A stretch of DNA of 42,924 bases from Psammoneis japonica (lineage: Eukaryota): assembly GCA_008632985.1 (NCBI GenBank), contig QPGO01000219.1:62001-104924 (forward strand), given 5' to 3'. Of the stretch, positions 11,377 through 42,261 are shown in pieces. The position numbers and the translations under genes were made by a program. The first letter of the stretch is position 1. Each line of letters opens with the position of its first letter. A model generated the notes under the pieces. That model did no database searches. It was given only the letters and a program-made list of their open reading frames with translations, and was not told the DNA's origin.

Positions 11377-12399
11377 CCAAGCATCTCAAGTGTTCATCAT
11401 GCCCCTTGAACATGCCGGGTGTCCACAACTTACTTCGCCTTTTCTGGTTTGCTGCTGCTGCCAGTGTTGCCACTGCCTTGTTTGTTTGAAGCTGTTGGCA
11501 TGATGAGACTCAACTTTTTTGAGGATCATCACAAAATGTCACTCACATGCCACCCACACAAAGGCTCAAATTTAAGTTTTGCAAGACACATTTCTTCCAA
11601 GTGCTGACAGACCCTAAAAAAAATGCTGAAACCACCAAATTTGTGCACAAAAGACAGTGACCACCTTGAAAACTGCAGCATCTGCCCATTTGCCAACAAA
11701 AAAGCCCCGCAGGAGAGGAAGCTTTGCTGGATCAGCATGATGCCAAATGGGCATGATGCAGTGGTGATGTCAGTGCCTTGGAAGGCAACAGGGGCACAAT
11801 TGATGCTGTCAGGCACATCATTGGTGGGCCAGCTTGTCACACACAAGAAATGCCACATGCACGCAGATTTTTTGTTTCAAATTCTGCAATGTCACCAGTT
11901 TTTTAATTTGGCATCTTGTGGTCTCTCTCTGCACCTTCTCTTCAAAAGAGACCCAGACACAAGCTGACAACCAAAGCAACAAACCAGAACAAGAATGGAC
12001 ATGCTGCAGTGGGGGACCAGTGCACAGCTGGGGACTGCAACCTCAGCTGCCGGTGTTGGCCTGCCAGCATTTGTTGCAATGTGTCACACAGTGCAGGGCT
12101 TGTGCAAGGAACAGTTGGCTGATGCTGGGTGGAAGACAAAAAAGCCCCTGTGCCTCCACAACACACAGAGACAAACAGACAAACACAGTCAATCAAAAGC
12201 AAGAGTTCACAAAAAGAAGCCAGAGTTTGGCTCAGCAAAGCAACCAAACAAATGCAAAGCAAGTCCTGCTGAGCAACCAGGGTGCTTTTTCCTGCAATCC
12301 CACGAACTTGGCTCAGCCCAAATGAACTTTACAACCTTCAACATTGCTTGGGCATCATTGTGCATGTTCACTTGGTCATCTCCCTTTCTCATTGGTGGT

Positions 12400-17300: not shown

Positions 17301-17564
17301 AACAATCAACTGACACAAATCTAAAACATCGCGACGGATGCAGGGGTTGTCACTCAACTGACTCTTTCTGCTCTCGAGCCATCGAACCATTTCAATCCTT
17401 GCCTTCTGGAATTCCTCATTCTGAATTCCTTCCATTGTCATGGCCACATCCATTTGCAGCTGCTCTCCGTTTTCATTACGTGTCGTTCCCGTGAGGAGCA
17501 TCTCGCCCATGTCTCCCAGCTCTCTAAATTTACACCAGTAATTCCGCGGCCACCGCTGGGCAAA

Positions 17565-17758
17565 GTGGCAGTCGGTCTAGTACAACACGGCCTCCTCGGC
17601 CAACGATGACGGAATCGAAACATTGGAGTCACATGGGTGTTGACACAGCTGGTGACAAAAGGAACAGCTCTCGAGTAGGGAGGGGATTCAAAAAGTTTGG
17701 AGCCGGTTCAGCAAAGTTTTGTCCCGCAACAATCTTCGGACAAGCCGCCTTATCTGAA
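17565..17758 (-). pseudogene. Local duplicate of an internal EPL1 segment (source 18206-18432)
   Basis: 194 bp alignable to 18206-18432 with 12 substitutions and deletions of 8 and 25 bp. Confidence 0.95.
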
Positions 17759-17882
17759 CGCCCCTCGGCAATTTGCAAGATTGCCGACCATTTCTGCTCC
17801 CACTACTCTGCATACTTATCTACAGAATGAGCAGATACAGCATCTGCAGTCAATTCTAGAGTCTATCATTTAGTCTTGCTGG

Positions 17883-19682
17883 CTAGAGCGGACCGATAGC
17901 GAACCTCTCTTCGCCCCAAAGCTGATCATCTGTATCCAACCAATCATCAACCTTCACAAGGACGGCTTCCCCATCGTTATCATCTGTTTCCGGAGTGGCT
18001 CCCGCAGTACCCGGTGCAGTTGCAGGAGTTTCGAAGTCATCCTTGAGAGCAGCAACACATATTTCTTCGATTCGCCGACTCAGATTTACATGGTCTAAAG
18101 GTTGAGGTAAAAGGTCAATCAGCCGTTCCTTGGGCTTGTCCGATCGCTTCACGCAGTCACCAGCTGTGTAAACCGTTGGTGGCGGCATTGTCGGGTGACC
18201 AGGATGTGGTAGTCGGTCCAGTACAACACGACCTCCTCGGCCAATTCGTGGACGATGACGGAATCGAAACGTTGGAGTCGCATGGGTATTGACATAGCTG
18301 GTGACAAAAGGAACAGCTCGGTCCCAGGATGTGACATATGACTCTCGAGTAGGAAGGGGATTCAAAAAGTTTGGAGCCGGTTCACCAAAGTTCTGTCCCG
18401 CAACAATCTTCGGACGAGCTGCCTTATCTGAAGACATCCCTTGACGAGCCGCTGCACTCTCATCGATTATATCCCCCGACGTTGGCATTGGAGAGCGTCT
18501 TGATGAATCGAGCTTTCGCTTCCTTCCTCTCTTCGCGGCAGCCTCAGATGTATCAAAACACTTTGGTACGTCAAGTAGACTATCCAACGCTTGACGACTC
18601 AGATTAGAGCTCAACCGACACCACCCACTCGTGTCAACAGCATCGTACATTCGCTGATCAAACAAGTCTGCTTGCATTTGAATCATTGATCGATTCAACT
18701 CTTCTCGTCTCTTGACCAAGTCCAGCATGACGCGAACCATGTCAAAGTCACTTCGTAGCTGCTTCATTTTTCGAAACGCTTCCATGTCATTTTGACGCTT
18801 CTTTCGTAGCTTGTACTTTTCCTTCTCGCGTGGCCTAAAGACAAGATGAGGATTGGTATCATCGGTAGCCGTAACAGGCCAAAACCGTCGAAGAAGAGGT
18901 CGCTTCAATTTTGAACGCTTCTGCAACCAATAAGTGTAAACGTCTTGGATGACATGCTTGACTGTAACTATTCCAGCGCGTGCCTTTACAGGAAACAAGT
19001 GCAAAAGCTGTGGGACTTTAGAAAATAAAAGGCGCTCCGCGTGATCCGTAGTAATGATGGTTTCGAATCCTGTTTCCTTTTCGAGAGCGTCAATCATTTG
19101 TTCAAGCATACCAAGAGATATCTGTGGCCGACGACGAAGCGAAGTATGATCCAAACTATCATCACTTTGATGCGAATCAACAGTTGGTGTGGATGCGCCG
19201 AATCTGGTGTTGCTCTGGAGCCATGCCTCGTCTTCTGCGTCAGCATTGTATTCCAGTTCTGTCGATAGTTGCTCCTCCGTTGGTTTGCGATAACGAACAT
19301 AGGATCTTGGTATCTGGTAGTTTGAAGGAACATCGGTGCCATACGTTTCTACATCGATGATTCGCGGTGTCGGGATTTCCTTCTTGGGCTTGGGTTGCAT
19401 GGACGGCGTCTAAAATAGAGTGTTGCAAGATGAAAACTTCAAAATGTGAGAGAAATCACGTCAAGTCTGTATGTCAACCGACGCATTGCATCATGCAACC
19501 TGGTTACCGGTATGAATACGTACCGACGTTGATGCTGCCTTTCCCAAATCAGCCACTGTCTTTATGTTTCCATCGCTATCTTCATATTTCAGTGTATCTG
19601 ATGCGCGCCTCACTATCGCTATCTTTTTGTAGACATTGAGTGCCGACACTCCCTTGATTGCCGGTGCAGTCGGCGGCGCCAT
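17883..19682 (-). CDS. EPL1: Enhancer of Polycomb-like protein (NuA4/TIP60 subunit); exons 19682-19524 and 19409-17883
   Basis: EPcA motifs IPTPRI..Y..P.SYVRY, EYNADAEDEAWL, VYTYWLQKRSKLKRPLLRRF, DTNPHLVFRPREK, and FRHRPRIGRGGRVVLDR. In-frame GTACGT..TTTTAG intron at 19523-19410. Confidence 0.9.
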
Positions 19683-20260
19683 GATCTATCGTCGATCGAT
19701 GTTGGATTTTACCGACGAGGAAGGACGTTGTGTGCTCGAGCAGAGTTGACTTCCGGGTGCCTCTCCAGTTTCTGTATGATAATTCAATATCACATTTCAT
19801 CATGGATATATTCAAAAAGTGTCACTATCAAAACGATGAACTTTAGAATTTTTCCCTTTACGATCCAACGGATGGTCAACCTAAACCGGATCTATCCATA
19901 ACATACAATTACGGAATTAATCATAAAGAAGACATTTTTCATAGCTGACGGTTGGCGGCATTTTCGTATATTTTATATATAGAATATAAAAAACTTACAT
20001 AAGTCTTCTCTTCGAAATTTGGGTCACGTACGTTTTCACGTCATCGTGGTACACACGCAGATTTTCGATCAACCAACAGAGCACTGCGCTGGACGGGCGG
20101 AGGAGTTGCTTTTGCGTTGTTGCGTTGTTGAGGTAACCGCGAAGGCAGTCCCAGTCAACTGTAGAAGAACGTTCCGCTGCAATTCATATCTCCCGTGTCT
20201 TTGCAAAGAGTACTTCCCAAGGCTTCACGAGGAACCCACGGGATTGTTGTTGAGAGAGAA

Positions 20261-21948
20261 ATGGGACTCATGGACAACAACAGAAACATCGACCGAACGA
20301 GAGAACCTGAGAGCTTCAATACCAGCAGCAACAACAACAACCTCTTTGACGACGAGCAACCCATGATGGACAGATCGCGAGTAGCTAACCAAAGCATGGC
20401 GCCGTCGGAGAACGTTCCACATGATCTTGGGATGGGGTTGGGCGATCAAGCTACCTCTGAAATTGAAGAAAGTAAAGCATCGCGATCCTTTCGGCGTCGA
20501 AGTTTACTCAAAAAGAAGAAGAAGAAAAAGGGCAGTCAAAAGAAACTCCCCAAGGAAGATATGGATCCTTATGATTCGGACCCTGGCGAGAGCTATCGTC
20601 AGCATTGCCTTCGCGTCAAAGGTATCAGTACTAGGACCTGTTTCGCAAGACCGAACTTTATGCGGCCGGCGACGGATGACACGGTTGCGACAGACCCTCC
20701 CTCGCCCCTGAGCGAACCGGAGGATGTGTTGAACCAGACACCCGTTTCTCTTCCAGCCGGAGTCGATCCTGTGCGATACTCGCTTCGAACGGCTATAGGG
20801 GACGGCTCAGAGGAGCAACCAACGGGACCGAGCGTAATGGAACGCCGGGAGTTAAGGCCCAATGGGGTACACGTGAATGTAAGCCACTGGAGTGCTACTG
20901 GAGCAAGACCTTACATGGAAGATCGGTAAGTTTTCTTTGATGCTTTGCTTTGAGGAGGTCTGATAGCCTGTGCTCACTTTTTGTTGCTGTACTGTTGAAA
21001 ACGCAGATATGTCGTGGAAGACATGGGTACCGTTCAAGTTAAAGTGAGCCCTGTTGTAAAGGGATCCCCCGCTGACGGTGGTGTAGAAGTTGCTCACGTG
21101 TCCCGTCCTCAGCGACGCCTAAAGATGCCACTCGGCTTCTTTGGGGTCTTTGATGGCCACGGCGGAGAAAAGGCAAGCCAGTACTGCGCAGACTGGATGT
21201 CCTCCTACGTTAAGACTCGAGATACCTTTCCTTACGATTTGGGCTACGCTATGAAGAACGCCTTTAATTCGATCGACGACGACTTTATCAACACGGGATA
21301 TCCAGATGGCACCACTGCCTGCGCTGTGTCATTGGTGGGAGGCCGCAGGATAGTCTGCGCCAACGCGGGTGATTCTAGAGCCGTTGTGGTGCGCAGAGAC
21401 GGGTCGGTGGTGCGACTCAGTAGGGATCACAAACCGGGGATTCCAGACGAGACCCGCCGCATATCGGCGCTTGGTGGGCGCGTCATTTACTGGGGGCGTT
21501 GGAGAGTTGAGGGGCTTCTTGCTGTATCTCGCAGTATCGGCGATGCTTCTCTCAAGCCGTACGTGACGGCCGAACCTGAGGTCTGCGAGTATGACGTTGG
21601 GGAAGACGACTGGTTCCTTGTAATATCTAGTGACGGCGTTTGGGATGTCATGGATAATGAGGAGGCTGCGCATGTCATTATTGCCACATCCTGCGTGATG
21701 GAGGATGGTAAACTTGTTATTGACACTGATCGATTTAAGTGGGCAGCAAGAAATCTGTGTGAGCATGCAAAGTAAGTGCTACGTCAGCCTGGTATTTGTG
21801 CCTGTTTCGTTTCGTGTGCCCTGATACTTATTGCCGCTTCTTTCATTCCAGATCATGCGGTTCAACAGACAATTTCTCTGTTGTTTGTGTAGATCTGCAG
21901 AGCTGCAGAAGTTCCAACTCAACGTCTGGTCGCTACGAGCCAAGATAA
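20261..21948 (+). CDS. PP2C/PPM Ser/Thr phosphatase with long N-terminal extension; exons 20261-20925, 21007-21771, 21852-21948
   Basis: Motifs GARPYMEDR, FFGVFDGHGG, DGTTA, NAGDSRA, DHKP, LAVSRSIGD, SSDGVWD and GSTDNFSVVCVDL, joined in frame by GT-AG introns. Confidence 0.95.
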
Positions 21949-24599: not shown

Positions 24600-25119
24600 G
24601 ATGCTAAAATACTTTCTCAACGGGAAAGAAAGGGACAGGCAGCAGCGAAAAGGACGACGTTTGACGCTATCATCGTCACCTGCCATGATAGTACCGCTGA
24701 TGTCGTTGGAAGACGCATGTTGAAGTTGAAGGACGGACGGACCATCCGATGACAAACAATCGATGAGACGGACAGACAAACGTGGGAATTTAATTTGAAC
24801 CTACGGATCCAGATATTTTCAAATAATAATGACTCAATTTCATGCTGGAGATTTTGATTTCCCTGATTTCCCGCCAAAATGGATTTCACCTTGTGGCATC
24901 GCATCACATTATTCACACTGAACGTCCTCCTCAAAACCTTAGTTGAACCGCGTCCTTACGATGTTCAACGCATTCACGTCTCCATCCGACACGACCACAA
25001 AACCAACCACCGCCGTGGGATTGGCGACGACCGATTTTTCGTAGTTCGCCAACTCTCACACTACACGCTGGTTGGCACAATTCACATTGGTAGTCAACAT
25101 CACATCGTAGCCGTCGAAG

Positions 25120-26766
25120 ATGAACTTCTTGTTCCAAAGCAAAGCATCCCAACCCCCTCCAGCCGCGGAGTCTCCACCCATGCATGCGTCCGAGGGAAGT
25201 AAGGAAGGTACTGACTCCGTCGATGAAGAGATTGACGGCATCCTAATCGTGTCAGGCGAAAAGCCTTTGTATGATGATGCAACTCCAGGTTTGGTGATCA
25301 CGAAGGAAGAAGGACTCGTCACCTCCGATACGAAAGTCGAGGACTCGTTCACGAACAAGCTTGCGACCGAAGTTAAAACCCCTGAACCTAACGATAACTT
25401 CGTCTCCGCCGAATCTGTGGACGCGGACCAATTCGACGATGATCCTCAGTTGATCGTCCCGTCCAGGTCGAATTCGGACCTATCGGTCCCTTCGAATGTT
25501 GGAATCTCGATCCTTCACGGGTTAGAGCTGAGCGGAGAAGTCGACAACGAGTCTCACAATGGTGAAGAGATCCTCGCTTCCGTCGCTTCCGAAGAAGAAG
25601 AAGCCAAGACGTTGCCAGAGGATTCTGCTCTTTCGAAGCTCACCTCAAGCTATGGCGCCCACGACGCAGAGGCTTTCATGAATGTCGGGAATTTACTGCA
25701 AGACCCACCGAAGGAAACGAGCAAACTCATTATTTCTGATAAGAGCAAGGCACCTTCGAGTGCAGGAGACGCCTCGGATACAGCGTTGCAGGGACGAATG
25801 ATCGGGAAGATGAAACAGTTCGCACATGTCATTCGAAGCTATGGGAAGGCGACCTCTGACAAGGAGAGTGTAAAGGAAGAGGAATCCAAGCCATCGAACT
25901 GCGCCCGGCAAGAGCACGCATCGTCCGCAACTGACAAGAAAGCTGATTTGATTTCATCTTCGATTGTCAAGTCTCAGACGAGCAAGTCTAGCCCCCCGCC
26001 TTTAGCGGCTGCACCGATGAAGTTGCGGTGGGTCATTATGGGGATTGTTTTCGTGACATTTGCCGTCAAGTACAGGCACACCGACCCAAAAGTCGAAGTC
26101 CTTGTATACCCGGAAACTGAGGACGTGGCAGATCCTTTAATTTTTGAAACTGACACCGACCCAAAAGTCGAAGTCCCTGTATACCCGGAAACTGAGGACG
26201 TGGCAGGTCCTTTAATTTTTGAAACTGATGTGGCAAATAGCAGCATTGTTGAATCTGTTGCAGCCAGCATGGAAAATGCTGTTTCTCCGTCACCGCTAAG
26301 CATTGAAACTGTTCCAGGGCCAACGTTCACCTACGACGGATACGATGTGGCCGCCGAAGAAAGCACGGAAAACTCCTCGGAAGGACGTAGCTCGCTTTTG
26401 TGGCGAGTTGTCGTTCTTGCCATGATTGGCTTGTGCAGCATCTTCCCGTCTCGGTTTAACACTGTTGCAGAGCCGCCCTCGAAGAAGAAGAAAATGAGGG
26501 GATCCTACCAGAAGCTACCTAAGGACGTTGATTTGACCAAATACAAGGAGCTTCGCGTCGTTGATCTGAAACCGTTACTCAAAGCCCGACAGCTGAAAGT
26601 TAGTGGAGACAAAGCCAGTCTTGTCCAGCGCTTGGTTACCGATTACGAGAAAGAGCTTTGGGGCAAGACGGTTGTGTCACTACGAGCCAGCCTCAAAAAG
26701 AAAGGATTGAAGCAGGCAGGCCTGAAGCACGAGCTAGTGACACGTCTCGTGGAGGCTGGTCTTTAG
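25120..26766 (+). CDS. Two-transmembrane protein with C-terminal tandem SAP domains
   Basis: Hydrophobic segments WVIMGIVFVTFAV and LLWRVVVLAMIGLCSIF. SAP motifs LRVVDLKPLLKARQLKVSGDKASLVQRL and TVVSLRASLKKKGLKQAGLKHELVTRL. Confidence 0.85.
   Translation: MNFLFQSKASQPPPAAESPPMHASEGSKEGTDSVDEEIDGILIVSGEKPLYDDATPGLVITKEEGLVTSDTKVEDSFTNKLATEVKTPEPNDNFVSAESVDADQFDDDPQLIVPSRSNSDLSVPSNVGISILHGLELSGEVDNESHNGEEILASVASEEEEAKTLPEDSALSKLTSSYGAHDAEAFMNVGNLLQDPPKETSKLIISDKSKAPSSAGDASDTALQGRMIGKMKQFAHVIRSYGKATSDKESVKEEESKPSNCARQEHASSATDKKADLISSSIVKSQTSKSSPPPLAAAPMKLRWVIMGIVFVTFAVKYRHTDPKVEVLVYPETEDVADPLIFETDTDPKVEVPVYPETEDVAGPLIFETDVANSSIVESVAASMENAVSPSPLSIETVPGPTFTYDGYDVAAEESTENSSEGRSSLLWRVVVLAMIGLCSIFPSRFNTVAEPPSKKKKMRGSYQKLPKDVDLTKYKELRVVDLKPLLKARQLKVSGDKASLVQRLVTDYEKELWGKTVVSLRASLKKKGLKQAGLKHELVTRLVEAGL
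26078..26227 (+). repeat. In-frame 75-bp tandem duplication (2 copies, 2 mismatches)
   Basis: acaccgacccaaaagtcgaagtc...tttttgaaactg at 26078 and 26153, encoding 25-aa TDPKVEVxVYPETEDVAxPLIFET. Confidence 0.95.
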
Positions 26767-26953: not shown

Positions 26954-29371
26954 TCAATCGCTCATTGAACTTCGTGCAGCGGCCTTCACGTCTAATCGTC
27001 CGTCTCGTTGCTTGTTCCGTTTCGTCACTTGATGATAGATATAGATCAAGCTCTGCGGTGTCACGCCGCTTATTTGGGATGCTTCAGCAAATGTAGTTGG
27101 CTTTATCAGGTTGAGCTTTTCCAGTTCCTCTTTACTCAAGGTCGGCAGTGCGCTATGTTCATAGACAAAATCAGGGGGAATCCGAACTCCTCGGGCCCGT
27201 CGCCAACTCTCCATATCTCGATTCTGCCTTGTCACGTACGATTGGTACTTAATGGAAGCCTCCACCGTATCGTAGACGGACGGTGGCGAGGGCGAGACTT
27301 CAGGCTTTGCGTCCGCGGTATCATTGGTTTCATCTTTAGATACCGCTAGCATGATGTCTTCCACATGTTTAAGAGTCACATGTGGCATTCTCAATACCTC
27401 CTCTGCCGTTTTCTTTTGTCCAGCATTCTTGTTCATTCGCGCTCCGCCCATCAAGTCGTTGCCACCTCGCTCAGCCCAATCTGTAACCTTCAATTGAAAC
27501 TTGCGCAGCTCCTCAATACGGTCTTCAATGACGTACTCCCGAGATTCAAGCGCTGCAATACGTTCTTCGTCACGGACAAGACCATTTTCCATCCCGCGAC
27601 GGGTCAGTCGGATATCTGCGTTGTCGGCTCGTAAGCTGATTCGATACTCTGCCCGCGAGGTAAACATTCGATAAGGTTCCGACGTTCCTCTTGTCACCAA
27701 GTCATCAATTAACACACCAATGTATCCTTCGTCGCGCCCGATGACAAAAGGCAAAGGAGCTTTTTCTCCTCTACTTGCCGCACCAGCAGCACGGCCAGCA
27801 TTCGCACCGGCAATAATACCCTGAGCGGCAGCCTCTTCATAGCCTGTGGTACCACAAATCTGTCCCGCAAATACAAACCTCCAATACTTTTGGTTTCAAG
27901 CGTATGTGTCAAGGACTGCGGATTGACAAAGTCATACTCCACGTCGTACCCCGGCCGAACAATGTCGCATTCTTCCAAGCCTTTCATGCTCCTCATGATT
28001 TTCAATTGAATCTCTTCCGGGTCTAAAACGCGAGGCAGGAAATATAATAGTGAAACACAAGCTGGACGAAACTCAACATAAGCCATCAGTTCACTCTGAA
28101 TCACTTACAAGGCCCACTCATTCCATTTGGATAGACAATGTCGGTGTTTAGCCCCTCCGGTTCCAGAAAGCAATTGTGACTGCGCCGCTCGGGGAAACGC
28201 TGTACTTTCTTGTAGATTGATGGACAGTAACGTGGGCCGTTCCCATCACCATTCATACCGTCATAAACAGGGAGGAGGTCTTCATACTTCATGACAAGTT
28301 GGTGTGTCTCGTCATTTGTGGCGGACTGATAACACTTTATCAACTTGTTTGCTGCGATCATCGGAGGTTGCTCTCCGTTGAACTGAAGCAAATGAGAAAA
28401 GGAGAAGCAGGTATCTCTGACGGCTGTTCTGTGCAGACATCCCAATTGATAGTTCGGCCATCAAGACGAGGCGGCGTTCCGGTTTTGAGACGTCCCAAAG
28501 GAAACTGAAATCTTTCCAGGGTTTTTGCTAATCCAACAGATGGCGGTTCCACCTTTTCTGAATCCCGCAAATGACGACCACCACTGTAACGATCATGCCC
28601 AAGCATCAAGACACCACGTAAGAAGGTACCCGTCGTAATCACAACAGCACGAGATATCAATTCAATGGTCGATCCATCATCTTTAGTAGCCACGATACCA
28701 CGAATGCGAGCACGGTGATCTTGCAAGGCTGCAGCGTCCATGAGTTTCTCAATCGAGTTGGAATCACTTCCAAACGAGCTCGAAGAAGACGCTTCGGATG
28801 AGGATGGCGCCATCATGGGTGCAAGAGACTCCAATTTTGCTTTTGAGGATTCATCCAACAATAGATCCTGAACACTTGCTTCTACGAGAAATAGATTATC
28901 ATAGCTCTGCAATGTTGTTTGCATTGCAGCCTTGTACAAATCCCGATCCATTTGAGCTCTTGGTCCTCGAACAGCCGGGCCCTTACGTCTGTTCAGAACT
29001 CGGTAATGAATTCCAGCTTCATCCGCAACTTTACCAATGAGCCCATCCAGAGCATCTACTTCTCGAACTAAATGGCCCTTTCCAATCCCTCCAATAGACG
29101 GATTGCACGATAACTCTCCGACGGTATCGAGTCTCTGAGTTACGAGAGCTGTTTTGGCACCAGTCCTCGCAGCCGCTGCCGCCGCATCACACCCAGCATG
29201 ACCGCCCCCAACTACAATCACATCAAACTCCGTCTCAGAACTAGCACTCATTGAAAGCGGTCGTTTCATGGCCGACGCAACACGAGACGGGGTTTTCAAC
29301 ACGAATGCATGAGCACTTTGCCGAAGAGACAGCAACAGCGATACCATGATCAAAGCTCGGCTGTTATTCAT
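26954..29371 (-). CDS. mnmG: tRNA uridine 5-carboxymethylaminomethyl modification enzyme GidA/MnmG (MTO1 family); intron 28108-28023; two single-base frameshifts in T-runs
   Basis: Motifs [82 protein letters not shown] and [14 protein letters not shown]-terminal signal peptide ending SAHA-F. Confidence 0.95.
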
Positions 29372-29759
29372 TTGATATCAGCTCTGTAACTATGGGGACT
29401 TTAAAGCTCGCCTTTTATTCGTTTTCTCTCAAGTTCTCTCCTGTTTTGTCCTTTCCCATCACAACATCAACATGTCCAGCATGCCTGTTTCTTTCTGCTG
29501 ACGCCAACCACCGATTGCATGATATTGCATGTTGCTTTGTACGTACCGGTATGTGTTTGTGTGCGTGAGCCGTCCCACCCCCGCGCGCTTGGAGCGATTC
29601 GCGCTCATCACGCTCAAAGTTGATTTTATTTATCAATTAATTAAATCATCAATACATAATAGTTTAAATATGATATATTGAATGTAAACATAAAAAATTA
29701 ATAATATATTACTTACATGTGTGTCACAGGGGTATTGAGAGAAGAATATTCTGCGATAC

Positions 29760-30786: not shown

Positions 30787-31861
30787 TTACTCACTCAGAG
30801 AATCGACCTCCGAATACCGCTGAACTCCTCTGACATCATCTCGTCCGATGGACCTAACAATAGCACAAGCTAGTGCCTGAACTGAGACAGGGCGATCCAC
30901 AAATGGCAAACCCACTTTGTTCCCAACAAAGAAAGCTCCTACTGGTAAGAGGCTTCCCGGTCGATCTAAGCTGTAAATGAGCGAAGGACGAAAGATTACT
31001 GGGCGAAGCTCCTTGGATGCCAATAGCTTCTTCTCGACTTCACGCTTGGCGGCGAGGTATCGCTTCAACCAGTCGGGAGCCAAAAATCTTTCAACGAATT
31101 CTCCTCCCCTCATCTGAGGCCAGCCGGCCTCAGCTGCTGAAGTAAAACTGAACGGTAGGGGTTGCTTGTTGGTAAGTTTGGCGTACTGTTCAGCGGCATC
31201 AATCGCATTGAACGCTGTTACGCGGGTAATTGTGTCATAAGTCGAGCCTTCGTCGGGAACAGATCCTGATCCAGAAGCAAAACGATTCCATGAGCCCAAG
31301 CCTGATTCATCATCTAGAAGCAGACCAATACAGTGCACCACACCGACATAGTCGCCTTCGTTTAAAACATTAAGAATAACTGAATCTTTTCTCGCATCTC
31401 CCTGACGGTAGTCCACCGCAGCTGCGTCAGCATCGTCTAGGGGATTGCCACGACGCGATAGGCTTGTGACCGTATAACCCTCCAGGAGCGCTCGCTTGCT
31501 AACAGCTTGACCTAGAAAACCTGGTTACATTCGAGGAGGGGGAAAGCAATGATGAATGACGGCTTCTAGTCCACATTCATAACCGCAATAAAGGTGGTCA
31601 ATGCTCATCGATGATCATGCTATTTGTTCTAACAATTCAGTAAACATGGCGCATAGATTTACCTGTGCCCCCTAATACGAGTAATTTTCCTTTTGTTGAT
31701 GTACCTCCGACACCGGCACTACTAGACATTGACAGAGTCGATTGACTGCGGATCACGGTGGCAACATGACGTGCGACTAATCCGTTGCAACCATGCAATG
31801 TCAAACCAAGAGACGACATGATCATACTGAAGAAAGTATTCCAAATGGCAAAACGTGCCAT
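30787..31861 (-). CDS. NAD(P)-binding Rossmann-fold epimerase/dehydratase-like protein; intron 31662-31521
   Basis: Spliced KLLVLGGTG|FLGQAVSKRALLEGYTVTSLSRRG, followed by GVVHCIGLL, YLAAKREVE and IFRPSLIY. Confidence 0.88.
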
Positions 31862-32588: not shown

Positions 32589-33227
32589 TTAAATCTTGGT
32601 TCGCTTTGGCTGATGAGAACTTGTCTCGTCCAACGGAAAACTAGCACTCCTTCGTCTACCTGGTGCCGTCGGTTCCCTCATGCTGTTTTGCCTTCCGATC
32701 GACGTGGATGTTGAACTCGAAACTTTCGTTTGCGCCAACTTGGAAGCAGACAATTCCTGTAGATGATAATACACATCTCTTGGCATCATAGGAGTGATAA
32801 GAGAAATCGGTGTGCTTGTCGTGGTTGGTGCTTCTGATGAATTGACATTCGCGTGAGCCGTGTATGGGAACAGCATTGAAGCAACTTTGGAATTGCGCCT
32901 TTGGTATCGTCGCCGATTCTTCTTTTCTTCCTGAAGAGAACCTTTCGTTGGTACAACAATTGGTTCTAAGTAGACGTATGCAGAGTCCCTAGGCTCCTTG
33001 CCCTTGTCGAAAGGTGTATCGTCCAACGAGAAGGGCTTCTTGGTCGAAGCAGCGATGTCTTGTTCCTCTTTCTCATCAAAGTGATTTGTTCCCACATTCG
33101 GGTCTTGCTCCACTTGAGAGAAGCCAGCTACAGTGCTCGTTGATGCCATCATGGGTGCTCTAGAGCTTTTCGGAAGAGGGGAGCATCCGTCTCTCGAGAG
33201 TGTATGCTGACGACGAACTAACTTCAT
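32589..33227 (-). CDS. Hypothetical low-complexity protein with an RRRYQRRNSKVASML motif
   Basis: Intact ORF from the first ATG (MKLVRRQ); start uncertain. Confidence 0.55.
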   Translation of the reverse strand: MKLVRRQHTLSRDGCSPLPKSSRAPMMASTSTVAGFSQVEQDPNVGTNHFDEKEEQDIAASTKKPFSLDDTPFDKGKEPRDSAYVYLEPIVVPTKGSLQEEKKNRRRYQRRNSKVASMLFPYTAHANVNSSEAPTTTSTPISLITPMMPRDVYYHLQELSASKLAQTKVSSSTSTSIGRQNSMREPTAPGRRRSASFPLDETSSHQPKRTKI

Positions 33228-33780
33228 TCGTAGATTTGTAAGAGTGGGACTTGACCGGTTTTTCCCCTCGAATTTGAATTCCGATTTGAATACCGGCACA
33301 GTAGATGGGTCACAACTCGTGATCGGTTAGTGGCTTCTCTAATTATTAAGAGACATTTCTGTGTAGATTGGATACAACAGATGACGTTCAGTAGAGCAAT
33401 GAACTTCCTCGTGTCCATATTACTCATACATTCTAGTGTTGCAAGAGGCAGACGTTGTTGTGACCTTTGAAATGTCTTTTCAAGATTGTGGCTGTGCTTG
33501 TGTTGTCCAATGTACGTGAAAGGCAGGCACTGTACAGTAATCTGAACAGAGGCAAAGACATGAGCGAACAGTCATTGGTAGCTAGAGACCTCTCTATCAT
33601 TCAGCATCCAGTGACCACATGTCTTTTGTTCGTACATGCCGCATCATCGCATCTGTTGAGGCTACTCTCTATTGTACTAGGCCCTTCCATTGAACAGCCA
33701 CAGCCAACGACGGGCTCCTTGACGATGCAGTTGACGGAAGATTTATGCCGGTCTGGTCTGTCTCTATCCATCCAGCCTCC

Positions 33781-36510
33781 TGAAGCGGTGCCGGCATGGA
33801 AAGACATTTTTTCAGTTTGTCGAACGTGCTTGTAGACTCGGAGTGCGCACAGAGCAACAGAACACGAACTTCAGCTGTTGCAACATGTTTTGTGAGAGAA
33901 CGTTCATCATCGTGAAGCTTGCGGCCCCCTCACCGCTGACCTTCACCAGCGTCTCTTGTGGTTTTGGCGCGTGCAAACCATCGTCGCGCTCTTGGGCTCT
34001 CCAGAGGTGTCTGCAGTGGGACAGACACTTCTTTCCAGCAGCATGTCTATGACCAATGAGTTGCAAAGACAAAGGAGGAAATCTGGGCAAGTGCGCTGGT
34101 CTTGAGAGTTCCTCCGCAAAACCTTTGAGCTCTGGCAAGAAGACCGTTTCCCGCATGAGGCCAAAGCATCGCCGATCCCCCAGCGCACACATTGCGGTCC
34201 AGGAGATGCTCCTGTCCCTTGCAGAGGTGTGTCTGTGTTCGAAGTCCCATCTCGCCAAAGAGTTGCAAAGACAAAGGAGGAGATCCAGGCAAATGTGCCA
34301 GTCTTGAGAGTTCCTCCGCCAAACCTTTGAGCTCTTGCGAGAAGACCCTTTCCCAAGGCCAAAGTGTCGCCGAGCCCCCAGTGCACACATTGCGGTCCAG
34401 GAGATGCTTCTTTCCCTTGCAGCAGCATGTCTGTGTTCAAAGTCCCATCTCGCCAATGAGCTGCAAAGACAAAGGAGGAGATCCGGGCAAACGCGCCAGT
34501 CTTGAGAGTTCCTCTGCCAAACCTTTAAGAGCTCTTGCGAGAAGAGTGTTTCCTGAGGCCAAAGCATCGCCGAGCCCCCAGCGCACACATTGCGGTCCAG
34601 CAGATGCTTCTTTCCCTTGCAGCAGCGTGCCTGCATTCTAAGTCCCATCTCGCCAACAAGTTGCAAAGACAAAGGAGGAGATCCGAGCAAATGCGCCAGT
34701 CTTGAGAGTTCCTCCGCTAAACCTTTAAACTCTTGCGAGAAGAGTGCTTCCAAAGCATCACCGAGCCCAAAGCGCATGCATTGCGGTCCAGGCGATGATT
34801 GTAAAGACAACTCATGGCAGCTGAGCCAAGAAATGGACAAAATGATGCGAGGCACATGTCAGCAAAATCAGTCCTCAAAGCACACGTTGGGGATTCATCG
34901 CCAGCATGGACGTGCGAAACATGTCGCAAACAAAGACACACCGGCATTGTTCATTTGGAGATTCATCACATGGCCCACCTGTGCAGCTTTCATGTGTGTG
35001 TTTCCGGAAGCTTGGAAAGAAGCATTGCAGAGAATGGCATGAGATGTTCTTCATTAAATTCGCAACAAGCGATCGGAACGTTGTGACTTCAAACGATCTT
35101 GCAAGGGGCCCGACGTCATTGCCAATGTCGTTGGAAGGAGTTGGTTGAAGCGGCGCCGGCATGGAAAGACATTTTTTCAGTTTGTCGAACGTGCTTGTAG
35201 ACTCGGAGTGCGCACAGAGCAACAGAACGCGAACTTCAGCTGTTGCAACATGTTTCGTGAGAGAACGTTCATCATCGTGAAGCTTGCGGCCCCCTCACGG
35301 CTGACTTTCACCAGCGTCTCTTGTGGTTTTGGCGCGTGCAAACCATCGTCGCGCTCTTGGGCTCTCCAGAGGTGTCTGCAGTGGGACAGACACTTCTTTC
35401 CAGCAGCATGTCTGTGACCAACGAGCTGCAAAGACAAAAGAGGAAATCCGGGCAAATGCGCTGGTCTTGAGAGTTCCTCCGCAAAACCTTTGAGCTCTGG
35501 CAAGAAGACCATTTCCCGCATGAGGCCAAAGCATCGCTGATCCCCCAGCGCACACATTGCGGTCCAGGAGATGCTCCTGTCCCTTGCAGTGGTGTGTCTG
35601 TGTTCGAAGTCCCATCTCGCCAAAGAGTTGCAAAGACAAAGGAGGAGATCCAGGCAAATGCGCCAGTCTTGAGAGTTCCTCCGCCAAACCTTTGAGCTCT
35701 TGCGAGAAGACCCTTTCCCAAGGCCAAAGTGTCGCCGAGCCCCCAGCACACACATTGCGGTCCAGGAGATGCTTCTTTCCCTTGCAGCAGCATGTCTGTG
35801 TTCAAAGTCCCATCTCGCCAATGAGCTGCAAAGACAAAGGAGGAGATCCGGGCAAACGCGCCAGTCTTGAGAGTTCCTCCGCCAAACCTTTAAAAGCTCT
35901 TACAAGAAGAGTGTTTCCTAAGGCCAAAGCATCGCCGAGCCCCCAGCGCACACATTGCGGTCCAGCAGATGCTTCTTTCCCTTGCAGCAGCGTGCCTGCA
36001 TTCTAAGTCCCATCTCGCCAACGAGTTGCAAAGACAAAGGAGGAGATCCGGGCAAATGCGCCAGTCTTGAGAGTTCCTCCGCTAAACCTTTAAACTCTTG
36101 CGAGAAGAGTGCTTCCAAAGCATCACCGAGCCCAAAGCGCATGCATTGCAGTCCAGGCGATGATTGCAAAGACAACTCATGGCAGCTGAACCAAGAAATG
36201 GACAAAATGAGACGAGGCACATGTCAGCAAAATCAGTCCTCAAAGCACACGTTGGGGATTCATCGCCAGCATGGACGTGCGAAACATGTTGCACACAAAG
36301 ACACACCAGCATTGTTCATTTGGAGATTCATCACATGGCCCACCTGTGCAGCTTTCATGTGTGTGTTTCCGGAAGCTTGGAAAGAAGCATTGCAGAGAAT
36401 GGCATGAGATGTTCTTCATTAAATTCGCAACAAGCGATCGGAACGTTGTGACTTCAAACGATCTTGCAAGGGGCCCGACGTCATTGCCAATGTCGTTGGA
36501 AGGAGTTGGT
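33781..36510. repeat. Tandem duplication of a 1365-bp unit (33781-35145, 35146-36510), each containing about four ~200-bp subrepeats
   Basis: tgaagcgg(t/c)gccggcatggaaagac at 33781 and 35146. Subrepeat anchor (t/c)tgcaaagacaaaggagg at 34061, 34263, 34461 and 34661, and again at +1365. Confidence 0.97.
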
Positions 36511-37215
36511 TGAACGGGCTGGCATCACTTCTCGTTTTACCAACATGGACAGCTTCGAGATTCCCACCCTGGCGAACCCAAGAAGCCAGCAATTCACGTG
36601 GTCGGTGCAACAACGGGCCATGAACAAGCACTTGTGTCTTTTCGTTATTTGTCATGTTCAAATTTTCCATCGAGGCTTCACCTTGAAGCCATCGCTCAAT
36701 GTCTGCGTGACAGCAAAAACGCGTCAATCCTCCGGCACCAAATCTGGCCTGTTCGCGACACATCTGAGGAAGCAGCTTGACATTGTTTCTCCATGATTCC
36801 TCTCTTCGACTGTGGAGTCAAAGCTGTGTTGGCTTTCTTGATGATGAATTTTTTTCAATGATGAGAGCTGCCAGCAATTGCCTTTGCCTGTTTCGTTCCA
36901 AGATTCAATTCTTCGTGTGAGTTGCTTCTCGGACGACGGACGCTTCAGAGCAGGCAAGCAGCGTGCCAGCACTCCAGAGGCCGTGAGTGTGCAGCAGTAT
37001 TTGACAATGACAAAAGCTTGTAGCTTGACCAGCATCAGCAACAGCCAGCACCACGGGGGGTGCCTCATTGCAAATGTGAGAGACGAAAGATGACACAACT
37101 GCGTTCCAAGCCTGCCCTTTTTCGTTCCAAGCCGTTTCACTTTCAAAAATGAAAAATTGAGCAAGAGCAACTCCAAGAGGGCGATGCTCTTGTTGTGGCA
37201 CGCTTTGTCAGTTCT
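33781..37215. other. TpA-depleted but largely CpG-retaining tract III
   Basis: TA is rare and mostly TTA/TAA, while CG is still common (e.g. tcgtcgcgct, ggcgcgtg). Confidence 0.85.
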
Positions 37216-37339
37216 TCTACTACATGTTTTCGCGATTACTCTCTAGCTAGAAATGACAGCATCTGCATGGGCGATGGATCTTTTGGATCTTGAATTTTTT
37301 TTTGAAGAATCCAAAAAATTCAGTCTCAGTCCATTTTTT

Positions 37340-37520
37340 CCATATGCATAAATACATAAGAACATTTTATTATAGATATAATTATTAATGTATTATAAAT
37401 ATGTCTAGCCAAACAGCCGTTGTGGAAAGATTTCTAGTTGTACATTTTTTATAAAATTATTTCAAAGATAAGCCTAAACGTTTTTATCATCATATTCATA
37501 GTTAATATTATAATCACTCC
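37340..37520. other. Very AT-rich intergenic tract upstream of the TPR gene
   Basis: Dense in TA (tattatagatataattattaatgtattataaatat), directly abutting the TA-free tract III. Confidence 0.6.
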
Positions 37521-37692
37521 TACTGTAGATACGATAATAAAAAGATGCTCAACCGCTCGATTTTGCGCCCCCAATAACAGGGACGTGCGACGACCGACGA
37601 TGCTGTTATTCCTCACCCGTACCCCCCCACCTACCTACCCTCCCTGACAACCGCAATAAGCCAAGACAACGACAGAGCCGACGGTATCAACC

Positions 37693-40600
37693 ATGTCGGG
37701 CGACAATGACGACTACGACAAGACTTATTCTATCCATCCACCTCGTATTGTAGTTCTTTCAGAAGATGAAGAGCAACCGCCGTCCCCGTTGGACTCTGAA
37801 TCGGACACGCCTCGTCATTACGCGCTGGACGATGAACTCTGGGACACGTCGCGCCGTCCTCTCGAGCTTTCGTCGATTGATGGGGCGTCCGCAGGAGCTT
37901 TGCTTCAACCCATGGGGATGAGATCCTCTCGTGTTCGGTCATCTCCAAAGCCGCCACGGTTTCGAAAGAAGGCAGAGACGATCAAAGATGACGCAGTCGA
38001 TGAAGACGACAGCAGTGAAGCAGAGGAAGAGTCTGATGAAAGCAGCGACAAGGAGCGGAAAACAAAGCGAGCGTTGATCCCGAAAGCAGACGATGCTGAA
38101 AGAACCATACAAAATGACGGTTTGAATCGAATTGCGCACTTACCGCGGCCAAGAAAGGAAGCAGTGATGCTTACCGATAGCACAAAGAAGGAAGCTGTGA
38201 TACTTTCGGATGGTAGTGAGCCGAGAGAACGAAGAAGAACCAGTCGGCTATCTAAGGAGAACGAGATTTCTCAGAAAAGAACTTATCGTCTTACACCCTC
38301 AGCGGACTCGAGGCCGCTTGACGAGCACCAGCATTTGAACGATTCGGCTGTGAGTGGGTATGACAGCTCTCGTCGCCATGCTCGCGACGAAACTGATGCT
38401 TCAGAGGAGACGGAAACTGCCGAGAATTCCAATGTTTCAGAAGAACGCAGAAGTACTCAACAAACTAAGCACAAAAAGGAACTCAAATCTCGAGAGCGGG
38501 CAACAGTTTCAGAAGAGAAACCTGAATCAAAACCTCCTCTTCCCACTATGAGCAAGCCGACGCCAATGGAACGACCTGATCCTAATCTGGCACCCGCGGA
38601 CGAAGTCACGTCGAACAATGCATTGCTTCTCAGAAATGCACAAGCACTAGAGTCGTCGGAAGTTTCAGCGCTTCAAGTAGACACGGAAATATCGGAAATC
38701 AAGAAAGGCATTGAGGAGTTGGAAGCTCTTTTGGAGGCTGCGCGAAAAGCCGAAACAGAGGCTTCCAGCAAAAAGAATACAAAAGAATCTGATACGGAAA
38801 AGGTCCCAATGAAAAACGAAGGTCTGACTGACTCCATAGAACATGCTGACAAGGAGAGCAGAAATACCGTGACCACAGCATCTACCCAGTTTTTAAAGAG
38901 CGACGGTTCCCACCAAACTTCCGTCACTGCCAGTATAAAGAGTGACGAAATTGAACAGAACGACAAGGACGCATTTTCATCCAAAGCGGTATCTGCGGCA
39001 CCAAGTAATATGAACGCCGCACAGCTCAACGAGGAGGAGGAAGAGACGGAAGAGGAAGACAGCAATACAGACGTTGCGTCTACTCTGGCGGCTGGTTTCT
39101 CTGAGGCTGCGGCATTGACCCTTTTATCTGCGGGGCAGACAGTAGAAAACCTTTTGCTCGGAGAGGCCGAGGCATCCTCCGAAGACGTACCCGTTCAATC
39201 TGAACATTCAACTGCAAGTGCCCCGCGAGGCGCGCGAAGCCCAACAGGCATGCAAAATAGTTCGGGTGTCACTCGTGTTGTCAGGGACACCGGCGAGACC
39301 CCTGAACCGAAGGACAAAGACTCAAAGGAGGAACTGAAACTGCAATCATATAGAACAGAACAAGGCATGGACGATTACTCCCCTCCTTATAAAGACGAAA
39401 CAAACGAAAGAGCGAACCGCCGAGATTCTCCTGCTTACCCAGAGCAAGGGCTACCAAGGACCAGAGGCCACTCCAATTCAAAAGACAATAGCTCGCTACG
39501 GAACTCTCAGATTACTCTTTCAACGACGGCTTCGGCTTACGACGAGCATAACTCGGGAGCACTGCGAAGGGTCAAGAGCCGTGACGACTCGTACACTTTG
39601 ACCCCACCCCTTCCTCCCAGACCAGCAGGTATCACCCGAGGCACCTTGCAGCCGTCTGAATCACCAATACAGCTTGATAATGATGCGACTGCAGCTGGTG
39701 GTCTGAAAACGAGGTATGGAAAAAATAGAACTCCTACCCGATCAGGTACAGCAGAAGAGTTAGCCGACGCTCGTAGCCATTTGGATGAACGTGCTGTGCT
39801 GTCTGGTGCATTCTCGCGAAAGTCATCATTGAATCTAGGAAATAATTTGGAGACCAGCGCAAGGTCTTGGGACGAGAAACAGGCCAAACAGACCATCGAC
39901 GGCCACGGCGATCACCAAAGTCCTTCTCAGCAGGCTATCTCCGGGTACAATGTTGGACTGCAGGTGTCACCGCGTCGCCCAGATTCTGCCAATAATATTC
40001 TCTTACCCAAGCTGAACGATGAACAGATGGTGACACCCCGTGCTCAGACAGTGTCGGGGGGCATGGCTCACGACCGAAGTTATGTCAAGCCACAGCTTCG
40101 GACTTTTTCGCCTTCTCGCGCCTCCTACGATACGCCTCCAACTACAAGCGCGCCTCCAACCGCACCCTCAGATGAACGCGCCGTCAGGCGGAATGACACT
40201 GCCCACAAACCACTCGAGCCTAGGTTTTCTCCTTACAAGGACACAAACGCTGACAACAGGTTGGATCCGGCTGTGCTGAAGACGGCTTTAAGTGAGGACT
40301 CGCAATCTGTACAGGAGGTTTCAAGTGTCATGTCCTCTCGTGGGAGAGCCGATTCCCAGTCAGAGATAGACAGCCCTCATAGATTGTCTCGTGCGGACGA
40401 GTCGGAGTCGGAGTCGTATTCACGTCAAAAGGTAGGAAAGGCCTCCTTGTCCGCTGTCTCAGCAATTGGCGAGCACTCTGGTCTTGGCGAATCTGAGTTC
40501 GTCGACTTTGGTCGCGATGACGAATCTATCATTCCAAGCCAATATCTGGCCTCAGTCGGTAGATCTCTCGTGAGTGAAACGAACGAAATTGGCGCTTCGT

Positions 40601-42261
40601 CAGAACCCGAAGACGCAAGCATCGTTGCTCCACTCACTGCGAGCCATGGTGTTGCTAGTGGCGATATTATGCTCTCACTTTTGGATGAGAGTGGGGGGCA
40701 ATCTGGATCTGAGATCAAAGGAAAGGACAAGGTACATGCTGCAATATGGAGGATGCGCGATCTACGACTCAGACACAAAAAAAGCCAACCGCAGTCCTCC
40801 TCACACAATTCTCCTCCTAGGAAGATTAATGTCCCTGGTGACGTTGACAGAGGCCGAGGTGTCAGAGGTATCAAGCATATTAGAGCACTACAAAATGCTG
40901 CAGTCTCTCATTTGGAGGTGAGTTTCGCGATGTAAGTTCAAAACAATAGCTTAAACAATGTTTCTGAGCATTTGCTCTCGCTCCGCAGGTCGGTGAGTTT
41001 GATGAGTGCATCGAGACATACGAAGATATAATTTTTGCCTACACAGAGTCTTTAACAAGATCGGAGGATCTTGCTACCGGAAAGAAGTCTCATGCTTCAG
41101 ACCAGGGGCAGGAGGACTACGTTTCTCATATCGGGGTTTCGCTCCTGAACATCGGAATAATTTTTATGCTGAAAGACGATTTCGAAGAAGCCAAGTCTTT
41201 CTTCAATAAGGCGTCCGCCATGTTGAAAACGTCTGTAGGAGAAAGTCATCCAGATTATGTGGTAAGGCGGATATGTAAACGTCGAATGTTGCACTTTCAC
41301 ATGTCCAGCACTGACTTTTTGTTTCGCCTTCGTTTCTCTATTTAGACGTGTTTGGTCAGATTAGCAATGTGTAACTTTGCGCTCGAAGATTTCCCGGAGT
41401 CTCACCAGATGCTAGACGAGTCTCTCGCTCTAGCGAAAGGCAAGAACAAGAGTCTGTCGGATGTCGCACAAATCGGAGAGATTTTGAACAATCTAGGGTG
41501 CTTATCTTTCATGAGCGGAAGTAAACCGAAGGCAGTGAAATTTTTTAAGGAATCGTTGGAAGTTCAGTTCATAGGCTTGAGCCAATCGCTTTACGGACTT
41601 TCGGCTCATGCGAGAGATGCGATCTCCCTAAATATCTCCATAGCGAGAGCGAATGTTGCATACATGAAGCTTGTCTCCAAAGATATCAAGGCGGCTGTTA
41701 CAGGGTTTGAAGCAGCGTTAATGGTTCGTGACAGACGCGTCTTCATTTTCACTCTTTTCGTTCGCCCCGCCAAACTAATGTTTCCCACGCTCTTCTGTAC
41801 AGCACCAACAGTTGATTCTGGGCGACGCAAATAACACTGTTGTTGCAACGATGGACAATTTAGCAATAGCTAACCTTCTACTCGGAAAGAAAGGAAAAGC
41901 TCTCCTTGTAAGTTATCATTTACGGTGTCTTATAAGAATTTGTCTCCGTGGCGAACCGTGATTGGACCTATGCATCTTACCTTGTTCGCCTCGCCTGTCG
42001 TCTGAGTAGATGCTGAACCGAATTCTGTACGCACAACTTCATGCATATGGACCGGACGACCCAAGATGTTCCGTTTCACTTCACAAAATCGAAATGATTA
42101 AGACGCGGGAAAAGGATATCGTCGATCGTATTTCGAAGGCTAACAACGATACCCCAGACCGCAAGGCACGGGTCCAGAACGATGCTTCGCATAGGAAAGC
42201 TCAGAGAAAAGGATTCAGTTTGCGCAGTTCTTTGAGACTGAAGAAGAATCCCGGCAAGTGA
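37693..42261 (+). CDS. Large protein with disordered acidic N-terminus and C-terminal TPR (kinesin-light-chain-like) repeats; exons 37693-40917, 40989-41261, 41346-41723, 41803-41907, 42010-42261
   Basis: Four GT-AG introns keep the frame. TPR motifs LLNIGIIFMLKDDFEEAKSFF..GESHPDY, EILNNLGCLSFM..AVKFFKESLEVQ, ATMDNLAIANL and YGPDDPR. Confidence 0.85.

Follow-up and report, generated by a model that had tools for sequence, protein, structure and literature searches.

Targeted hypermutation of genomic TpA steps was first reported in 2026, for one rhizarian alga, the chlorarachniophyte Bigelowiella natans (Mettrop et al., bioRxiv 10.64898/2026.01.13.699255). According to the main text of this preprint, integrated regions of nucleocytoplasmic large DNA viruses (NCLDVs) and virophages are hypermutated from TpA to TpG or CpA; of the 231 de novo mutations recorded there, 230 were A>G or T>C at TpA, the rate being raised about 1000-fold over the background, and the hypermutation was confined to some of the mutation-accumulation lines. 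Also, 124 TpA-depleted clusters enriched in CpA and TpG were described genome-wide, and an ADAT2-like deaminase was named as candidate enzyme. In the literature searched, only this preprint describes a TpA purge, and no joint purge of TpA and CpG in stramenopiles was found. Here, we describe tracts of this kind in a window of 42,924 nt (the whole stretch of contig QPGO01000219.1 that was analyzed), above all the intergenic tract C, which has lost nearly all of its TA dinucleotides while keeping most of its CG dinucleotides. With a probability of about 0.6, tract C is a non-coding record of two separate, domain-restricted transition processes at an early stage. It looks like the beginning of a two-step mutational silencing that has been completed in two older neighbors, tracts A and B.

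Other known systems leave related traces. Fungal repeat-induced point mutation (RIP) changes C to T mainly at CpA, thereby giving an excess of TpA and a deficit of CpA and TpG. Methylated CpG decays in vertebrates and in silenced transposons, and the average observed/expected ratio (o/e) of CG in vertebrate genomes is about 0.2–0.25. Tract C has the following features.

33771–37217, no strand: tract C, TA-purged, CG-retaining, non-coding intergenic
33781–35145, plus strand: duplication copy 1, ungapped alignment with copy 2; 8 TA, 67 CG
35146–36514, plus strand: duplication copy 2, ungapped alignment with copy 1; 8 TA, 69 CG
36515–37217, no strand: single-copy right arm of tract C, TA-poor to the same degree
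34053–34797, plus strand: subrepeat array of copy 1 with units U1 (34053–34254), U2 (34255–34452), U3 (34453–34652), and U4 (34653–34797)
35418–36162, plus strand: subrepeat array of copy 2, the same four units shifted by 1365

As background, 45 windows of 1 kb from the 42,924 nt were used, which had a TA o/e of 0.60 ± 0.10 (minimum 0.39) and a CG o/e of 1.04 ± 0.11 (minimum 0.78). Positions 33781–37215 contain 20 TA (o/e 0.10) and 168 CG (o/e 0.73); TA is thus about 5 standard deviations below background, while CG is mildly low. Per kb, there are 5.8 TA in tract C vs 40.1 in the background and 48.7 CG vs 59.8, and the sum of TG and CA reaches about 175.5 vs 137.9 (o/e of 1.36 for TG and 1.44 for CA). 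The observation is real and well beyond chance. An earlier reading made from the sequence only had described the tract as nearly TA-free yet CG-rich. The TA part is borne out by these values; of the CG part it holds that most CG was kept, but this is only about 80% of the normal density.

The edges of the tract were located by maximum-likelihood change points, calculated on TA and CG density separately. For tract C, change points were placed at 33770 and 37215, and the nearest TA dinucleotides of the flanks are at 33765 and 37218. On the left, the edge falls together with the start of the duplication (33781). On the right, the TA-poor zone extends over 707 bp of single-copy DNA beyond the duplication, and this arm (36511–37215) contains 4 TA (o/e 0.09) and 32 CG (o/e 0.75). 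The tract lies between the divergently oriented open reading frames (ORFs) 32589–33326 (minus strand) and 37660–40935 (plus strand). Long ORFs are present in all of its frames because TAA and TAG are almost missing.

Two further tracts of the window have lost both dinucleotides.

2601–5000, no strand: old tract A, both purged; 8 TA (o/e 0.05), 22 CG (o/e 0.17), TG o/e 1.92, CA o/e 1.60
7401–17000, no strand: old tract B, both purged; 27 TA (o/e 0.04), 43 CG (o/e 0.08)

Taken together, they have o/e values of 0.01–0.17 for TA and CG and of 1.6–2.3 for TG and CA, and their sequence is complex and non-repetitive. TGA is the sole remaining stop codon in both, and long false ORFs run through all six frames.

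All three tracts look like host-type DNA that was changed solely at pyrimidine-purine (Y-R) steps. The fraction of Y-R steps is 0.230–0.238 across tracts A, B, C and the background (0.230 in tract C, 0.238 in tract B and in the background), and TA, CG, TG, and CA together amount to 238 per kb both in the background and in tract B and to 230 per kb in tract C. In a conversion model, TA and CG of background DNA were turned to TG or CA at fitted rates. The fitted losses were 86% of TA and 19% of CG for tract C and 93% of each for tract B, with these predictions:

Tract C: GC content predicted 0.505, observed 0.517; TG+CA per kb predicted 183, observed about 175.6
Tract B: GC content predicted 0.463, observed 0.467; TG+CA per kb predicted 230.5, observed 230.6
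Tract A: GC content predicted 0.467, observed 0.462; TG+CA per kb predicted 225.6, observed 217.2

The gains of TG and CA were roughly equal, and the strand skew was inside the background range. With about 86% of the expected TA gone from tract C and about 19% of the CG, the earlier claim that TA loss is separable from CG loss stands.

The duplication made it possible to order changes in time. Positions 33781–35149 and 35146–36514 (period 1365 bp) align without gaps and differ at 32 of 1369 bp, by 28 transitions and 4 transversions; at the break of copy 2, imperfect homology continues for about 13 bp, to 36525. Fourteen of the transitions fall in a CG of one copy, and there is one further TG/CA pair at which other units carry CG. 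The expected eight or so subrepeats proved to be four units in each of the two 1365-bp copies. The 8 units were aligned with MAFFT. Identity between units is about 86% in ACGT and rises to about 95% once bases are coded as purine or pyrimidine. Tandem Repeats Finder gave a period of 200, 3.8 copies, and 85% matches for the array, and the individual periods of 202, 198, and 200 bp do not maintain a reading frame. The majority consensus unit has 0 TA and 10 CG in 198 bp, which is a background-like CG density.

Changes within the 8-unit alignment were polarized by parsimony with the other subrepeat units as outgroup. After the duplication, 10 changes of CG to TG or CA took place in the array, none in the opposite direction, one of TG to TA, and 5 other transitions; 3 changes were not polarized. 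On the older, deep branches, 5 losses of CG stand against 1 gain from TG or CA. Over the whole duplication, transitions per site are 11-fold more frequent at CG than elsewhere (0.093 vs 0.0083; Fisher p = 2e-8). CG losses stand against other changes at 10:6 on the young and 5:16 on the deep branches (Fisher p = 0.023). This higher share on the young branches suggests that CG decay began or accelerated late, although parallel losses may deflate the older count.

For TA, the picture is different from what the sequence-only reading had proposed. The copies differ by TA vs TG or TA vs CA at four positions (34049, 34537, 34555, and 34802), among them the two examples given there (34049/35414 and 34802/36167), which are indeed present. 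They had been taken as signs that TA erosion continued after the duplication, but both are gains: at 34049 the homologous unit tails have TCTGTG, and at 34802 all 8 of 8 unit starts have TTGCAAAG. Altogether, 3 TA were gained since the duplication (34049, 34802, and 35902) by ordinary G>A or C>T changes and at most 1 was lost, the sole candidate being 34555/35920, where the units show TG, CA, and TA. The balance of TA gains and losses, by which the earlier reading had proposed to be judged, thus speaks against continued erosion. The test is a weak one, because the 6 TA common to both copies are mostly in the spared contexts TTAA and CTAA, and 0 losses in 12 lineage-sites are still compatible with a loss of up to 22% per site.

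A time for the TA purge can be read from double changes. At four places (array columns 44–45, 116–117, 137–138, and 185–186), some units have CA and others TG as adjacent double changes. Independent substitution would give 0.02–0.10 flips of this kind, and a total of 4 was not reached in any of 20,000 simulations. In the simplest reading, these columns were TA in the ancestral unit and each was resolved separately to TG or CA after amplification. Since CG was kept in 62 of the 90 cells of the 12 CG-bearing columns, an ancestral CG is improbable for columns in which no unit retains one, and TA is the probable ancestral state. The two copies are identical in state at all 4 of 4 flips; in this reading, the resolution of TA would therefore predate the 1365-bp duplication. 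The purge of TA probably fell after the amplification of the subrepeats and before the large duplication.

A flank signature ties tract C to the older tracts. Survival was defined as the density in a tract relative to that in the background. In tracts A and B together, TA survival is 0.53 for TTAA, 0.28 for CTAA/TTAG, 0.08 for GTAA/TTAC, 0.03 for ATAA/TTAT, and at most 0.04 for the other six contexts. A one-strand model, in which the strands are hit independently and survival is set by the base 3′ of the A in 5′-TA-N, fits all ten contexts (G = 4.1, p = 0.66), with fitted survivals in the old tracts of 0.76 for A, 0.29 for G, 0.10 for C, and 0.04 for T. One copy plus the right arm of tract C (12 TA) give the same order (0.76, 0.40, 0.28, and 0.16). 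The context rankings of the old tracts and of tract C are correlated for TA (Spearman 0.71, p = 0.02) as well as for CG (Spearman 0.81, p = 0.005). CG survives best in GCGC (0.31) and CCGG (0.21), most other contexts in the old tracts being at 0.03–0.09. Because the ranking of flanks is the same in old and young tracts, tract C is linked to both processes completed in A and B. Two simpler accounts of the survivors were rejected, namely uniform TA survival in the old tracts (G = 71.7, p = 7e-12) and survivors as new TA arising from CA or TG (14 TTAA observed vs 2.6 expected, p = 9e-12).

At the edges of the old tracts, the footprints of TA and CG loss do not coincide.

2470–2590: left margin of tract A, TA change point 2470, CG change point 2590; 0 TA and 13 CG in 2466–2600
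5150–5235: right margin of tract A, CG change point 5150, TA change point 5235; TA-free, CG-normal
7180–7315: left margin of tract B, TA change point 7180, CG change point 7315; 1 TA and 11 CG in 7178–7320
17330–17475: right margin of tract B, CG change point 17330, TA change point 17475; TA-free, CG-normal

At 4 of 4 edges, TA density changes farther out than CG density, with offsets of 120, 85, 135, and 145 bp (sign test for the same direction p = 0.06). The four margins together contain 1 TA, while about 19 would be expected at 40 per kb, and CG is still dense in them. As these margins were chosen post hoc, their TA deficit is only suggestive of two processes with different footprints. Together with the consensus unit, which has 10 CG and no TA, the nested edges support TA loss as the earlier or faster of the two; the sequence-only reading had called it faster than, or independent of, 5mC deamination.

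In the reading that we prefer, a first process would be a TpA-specific purge changing TA to TG on one strand (TA to CA on the other), symmetric across strands, which would have removed about 86% of the TA expected of host-like DNA in tract C. The A of 5′-TA-N would be lost readily if N is T or C, less so if it is G, and rarely if it is A, with TTAA surviving. This purge would have run nearly to its end in the interval between the amplification of the 200-bp unit and the 1365-bp duplication, with no sign of it since. A second process would be decay of CpG to TpG or CpA, as expected from cytosine methylation and subsequent deamination. It would be slower, would have begun or quickened later, and would still be running, as the 11-fold rate and the young branches with losses only indicate, and its domain would be nested about 85–145 bp within the TA-purged domain. 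Over time, both processes would lead to the TA-free, CG-free, and TG/CA-saturated state of tracts A and B. We infer that, as has been proposed for B. natans, the first process may be an enzymatic deamination of adenine in DNA aimed at a marked chromatin domain. The second probably depends on 5-methylcytosine, and the function would be the silencing of unwanted DNA. A more specific version, to which we give somewhat worse than even odds, is a two-step, RIP-like system of stramenopiles that would erase both self-complementary Y-R dinucleotides from marked DNA by a burst of TpA editing followed by slower CpG methylation and deamination; it includes the preference 5′-TA[T>C>G>>A] and an overshoot of the TA domain beyond the methylated core by about one nucleosome.

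The resemblance to B. natans is close in several respects described in the main text of the preprint. Both cases concern delimited regions with depletion of TpA and enrichment of CpA and TpG (here a TA o/e of 0.04–0.10, and TG and CA of 1.6–1.9 in tracts A and B). In B. natans, only TpA is hit and becomes TpG or CpA depending on the strand; the same would apply to the tracts here, to judge indirectly from the constant Y-R fraction, the predicted GC and TG+CA values, the lack of strand skew, and the four CA/TG flips. Many targets in B. natans are without annotation, as the tracts here are without matches, and the episodic activity there fits a purge without detectable present activity here. The differences are as follows. 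Here, the host is a stramenopile. The targets in B. natans are integrated viral DNA, whereas the tracts here have no viral or transposon match. The depletion here is far deeper (o/e 0.01–0.10 vs a rho of 0.45 for the NCLDV region there), and the old tracts are also purged of CpG, a term that does not occur in the main text of the preprint. In B. natans, de novo events were caught in mutation-accumulation lines, while here past changes were read from the sequence of one window, with contigs of 3 runs from one sample, and no de novo event was observed. The window adds four points to the main text of the preprint: CpG is purged from the very tracts that lost TpA, the two processes have an order, the edges are nested, and there is a rule for the 3′ neighbor.

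With fungal RIP, the tracts share a transition-only, domain-wide mutational inactivation ending in a skewed dinucleotide profile. However, RIP enriches TpA, whereas here TpA is destroyed and CpA and TpG are the products; therefore, the tracts are not products of RIP. The targets of RIP are duplicated sequences. Tract C contains a duplication as well, but one that probably postdates its purge, and for tracts A and B a second copy was not found in the window, whether in ACGT or in purine/pyrimidine code. The CG arm resembles decay of methylated CpG in that CG changes to TG or CA about 11 times as often as other sites, losses are far above gains, and CG flanked by G or C survives better. Unlike in vertebrates, the end state has a CG o/e of 0.02–0.14, the tracts are sharply bounded, and the TA purge comes first. 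For diatoms, DNMT4 enzymes related to fungal RID, of which the function is not known, have been described (PMC9998398), and a RID-like DNMT4 would be a candidate for the CG arm.

Context-specific deamination as a defence is also known from APOBEC3 and ADAR. These act on single-stranded cDNA or double-stranded RNA and leave a one-strand signature, whereas the gains of TG and CA here are symmetric. Furthermore, the 3′ preference here (T > C > G >> A) differs from that of ADAR, which is for G. Adenosine deaminases of tRNA edit A34, always 3′ of U33, which fits the requirement for TpA and leaves the 3′ T unexplained. Early DNA editors based on TadA preferred YAC, which agrees with a 3′ C but does not explain the 3′ T either. 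On the 5′ side, ADAR prefers U next to the edited A, as cited in the preprint (bioRxiv 10.64898/2026.01.13.699255).

Several other explanations were weighed. A single process of dual specificity, such as a deaminase that attacks the A of TpA and, less quickly, the C of CpG throughout one marked domain, would reduce the separability to a difference in rates. Both depletions co-localize in tracts A and B and drain into the same TG/CA sink, the TA and CG edges are only 85–145 bp apart, and a CG o/e of 0.02–0.14 in old tracts is very low for passive decay; the main text of the B. natans preprint also refers to reports of ADAT2-type enzymes deaminating A as well as C in DNA (bioRxiv 10.64898/2026.01.13.699255). 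We nevertheless consider it unlikely, as 10–15 CG losses followed the duplication against 3 gains and at most 1 loss of TA, and CG decay was relatively slower in just the older period in which TA was purged (5:16 vs 10:6). The margins lack TA at normal CG density, and in B. natans the 230 of 231 hypermutations at TpA in the preprint's main text were not accompanied by a burst of C>T. Quite unlikely, too, is that the tract or its founding unit came TA-poor or is constrained to be so, with no TA mutation in place. This would agree with the consensus 200-bp unit without TA, with the datable TA changes in the array being mostly gains, with a source of tract C that similarity searches did not trace, and with tract C, taken by itself, being compatible with uniform TA survival (p = 0.26). 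It does not account for the Y-R fraction, the GC shift, and the TG+CA excess, which match the conversion of host-like DNA, or for a flank ranking equal to that of the unrelated old tracts. The four CA/TG flips at homologous steps and the equally depleted single-copy right arm also speak against it, and the tract is non-coding, has a frame-breaking period, and is without relatives.

The sequence-only reading had itself offered a T to C mutator acting at TpR, which would drain TA irreversibly while regenerating CG from TG. For a eukaryote, the 7 polarized non-CpG changes of the types T>C and A>G against 6 of C>T and G>A are unusual, and a mutator could produce them; however, none of the 16 young polarized changes and only 1 deep one is a TG or CA to CG change, against 10 and 5 CG losses, and none of 5 polarized non-CpG T>C changes is at TpA or TpG. 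With losses to gains of CG at 10:0 on young and 5:1 on older branches, this proposal is rejected as highly improbable. Just as improbable is an artefact, whether from systematic errors of base calling or polishing where TA or CG is modified or from two alleles assembled in tandem. In favor of an artefact, substitutions and indels cluster at 36849–37631, and in one contig the states of the two copies are mixed. Contigs of run X1, which may be the very sample behind the assembly of the window, reproduce tract C with 0–3 other letters per piece, and their depth is 112–132 in the pieces common to both copies vs 58 in the flanks. As the contigs match and the depth is about twofold where the copies are identical, the duplication and the tract are real. 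Random error, moreover, would not give the regularities of Y-R steps and flank contexts.

Some results weigh against the reading of two separate processes. The 3 gains and at most 1 loss of TA after the duplication argue, with little power, against current activity of the TA purge. A purge after amplification predicts 2–3 columns split 2:2 between TG and CA, and none was found. In tract C by itself, the flank order is not significant (p = 0.26). Polarity was taken from paralogous units, in which gene conversion or parallel loss could mislead, and the lone "CG gain" may be three parallel losses. No viral or transposon domain was found in the ORFs of any tract, although heavy editing may mask the origin, and such a tract is absent from 194 kb in 33 loci of relatives. 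Finally, the data comprise one 43-kb window with three tracts, 12 independent TA in tract C, and 16 polarized young changes.

If the two-process reading is true, the TA signature also exists in a stramenopile and thus in a second major lineage. The TA purge would be coupled with CpG decay in space but not in time, TA being lost first and CG later. In the more specific, RIP-like version, TpA editing would be an old genome defence across stramenopiles, alveolates, and Rhizaria rather than a peculiarity of one chlorarachniophyte, with tract C as a time-stamped intermediate. Any candidate enzyme or chromatin mark could be compared with two handles, namely the flank rule, by which TTAA is spared while TAT and TAC are hit most, and the overshoot of the TA domain by 85–145 bp. 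For annotation, such tracts carry long false ORFs in all frames because TGA is the sole stop left, and their origin is hidden from similarity searches.

The origin of the tracts was searched for in several ways. None of the ORFs scanned had a Pfam family above the cut-off, neither the 23 from tract C nor the 96 stop-to-stop ORFs from the two old tracts with their edges. With phmmer, the longest tract-B ORF had 0 matches among 1.84 billion representative proteins, and a word search with the right-arm ORF 36724–37242 (minus strand) found 0 relatives. For tract C, Rfam gave 0 matches and ARAGORN 0 tRNA genes, and the subrepeat pattern had 0 matches in the metagenome contigs scanned. In a purine/pyrimidine self-comparison of the window, no homology between tracts exceeded the decoy score. 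As a possible terminal inverted repeat of tract C, an 18-nt pair at 33571–33588 and 37240–37257 (89% complementary, core CTAGCTAG) was considered. It was rejected as weak and probably due to chance: by a rough estimate, chance alone would give about 0.2 pairs of this kind, and the left arm lies in TA-normal DNA, 180 bp beyond the border of the TA-poor zone.

In the contigs of run X1, the variant cluster near the right edge of tract C consists of 14 substitutions in 36975–37383 and 8 small indels in 36849–37631, some at about half depth. It spans the edge and the TA-rich, promoter-like region past it and includes 4 CG/TG or CG/CA and 2 TA/CA differences. No such variants were found in 5.4 kb of flanking single-copy sequence.

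Paired copies were also observed near tract B. A 130-bp copy of sequence from ORF 5553–6563 (minus strand) is situated just within its left end (6133–6267 vs 7438–7574). Between the normal 6137–6263 and 7442–7570 in tract B, TA or CG corresponds to TG or CA in the tract at 4 sites and the opposite applies at 1; the pair also shows two TG/CA flips. In the TA-poor, CG-normal right margin, 17565–17776 is a partial copy of 18206–18452, part of the EPL1-domain ORF. The copy has two deletions, one of 8 bp and one of 25 bp, and almost all of its roughly 12 differences are transitions. The gene has TA where the margin has TG or CA at 3 sites and CG where the margin has CA at 3 sites, with one of each reversed. 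Within tract B, the tandem pair 14609–14764 and 14787–14939 has an identity of 79% in ACGT, which rises to 92% in purine/pyrimidine code. TG faces CA at several homologous steps of the pair, as expected if this duplication preceded the purge.

The window as a whole is eukaryotic, with a GC content of about 48% and closely packed genes, of which the following were assigned:

20165–21775: PP2C gene
26954–29377: MnmG/MTO1-type gene
25111–26766: SAP-domain ORF
Further genes of the window: EPL1-domain ORF and PPR ORF

All 6 of 6 species-named matches to the PP2C ORF are from stramenopiles (a diatom with 57%, Triparma with 54%, oomycetes and Ectocarpus with 44–47%), which identifies the host as a stramenopile and not Bigelowiella. 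Metagenome relatives without species name reach up to 80%. In 33 PP2C loci of relatives (194 kb), no 1-kb window had a TA o/e below 0.25 or a CG o/e below 0.35. These relatives are uninformative on the tracts because their synteny with the window ends at the PP2C gene and metagenome assemblies seldom contain repeats.

Contigs of run X2, labelled "DNA?", do not cover 33401–37600, which has no bearing on expression either way. One X2 contig skips 142 bp at 31519–31660, the ends of which are CT..AC, i.e. GT..AG on the minus strand. The skipped sequence is an intron of an NAD-binding/epimerase-like gene, and a contig skipping 142 bp with intron-type ends suggests that X2 is an RNA data set. Directly to the right of tract C, the ORF 37660–40935 on the plus strand encodes 1091 amino acids without interruption, is rich in Ser, Glu, and Asp, and has no Pfam family. 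Within the SAP-domain ORF 25111–26766, a 75-bp tandem repeat is present at 26078–26228 in 2 copies with 97% identity.

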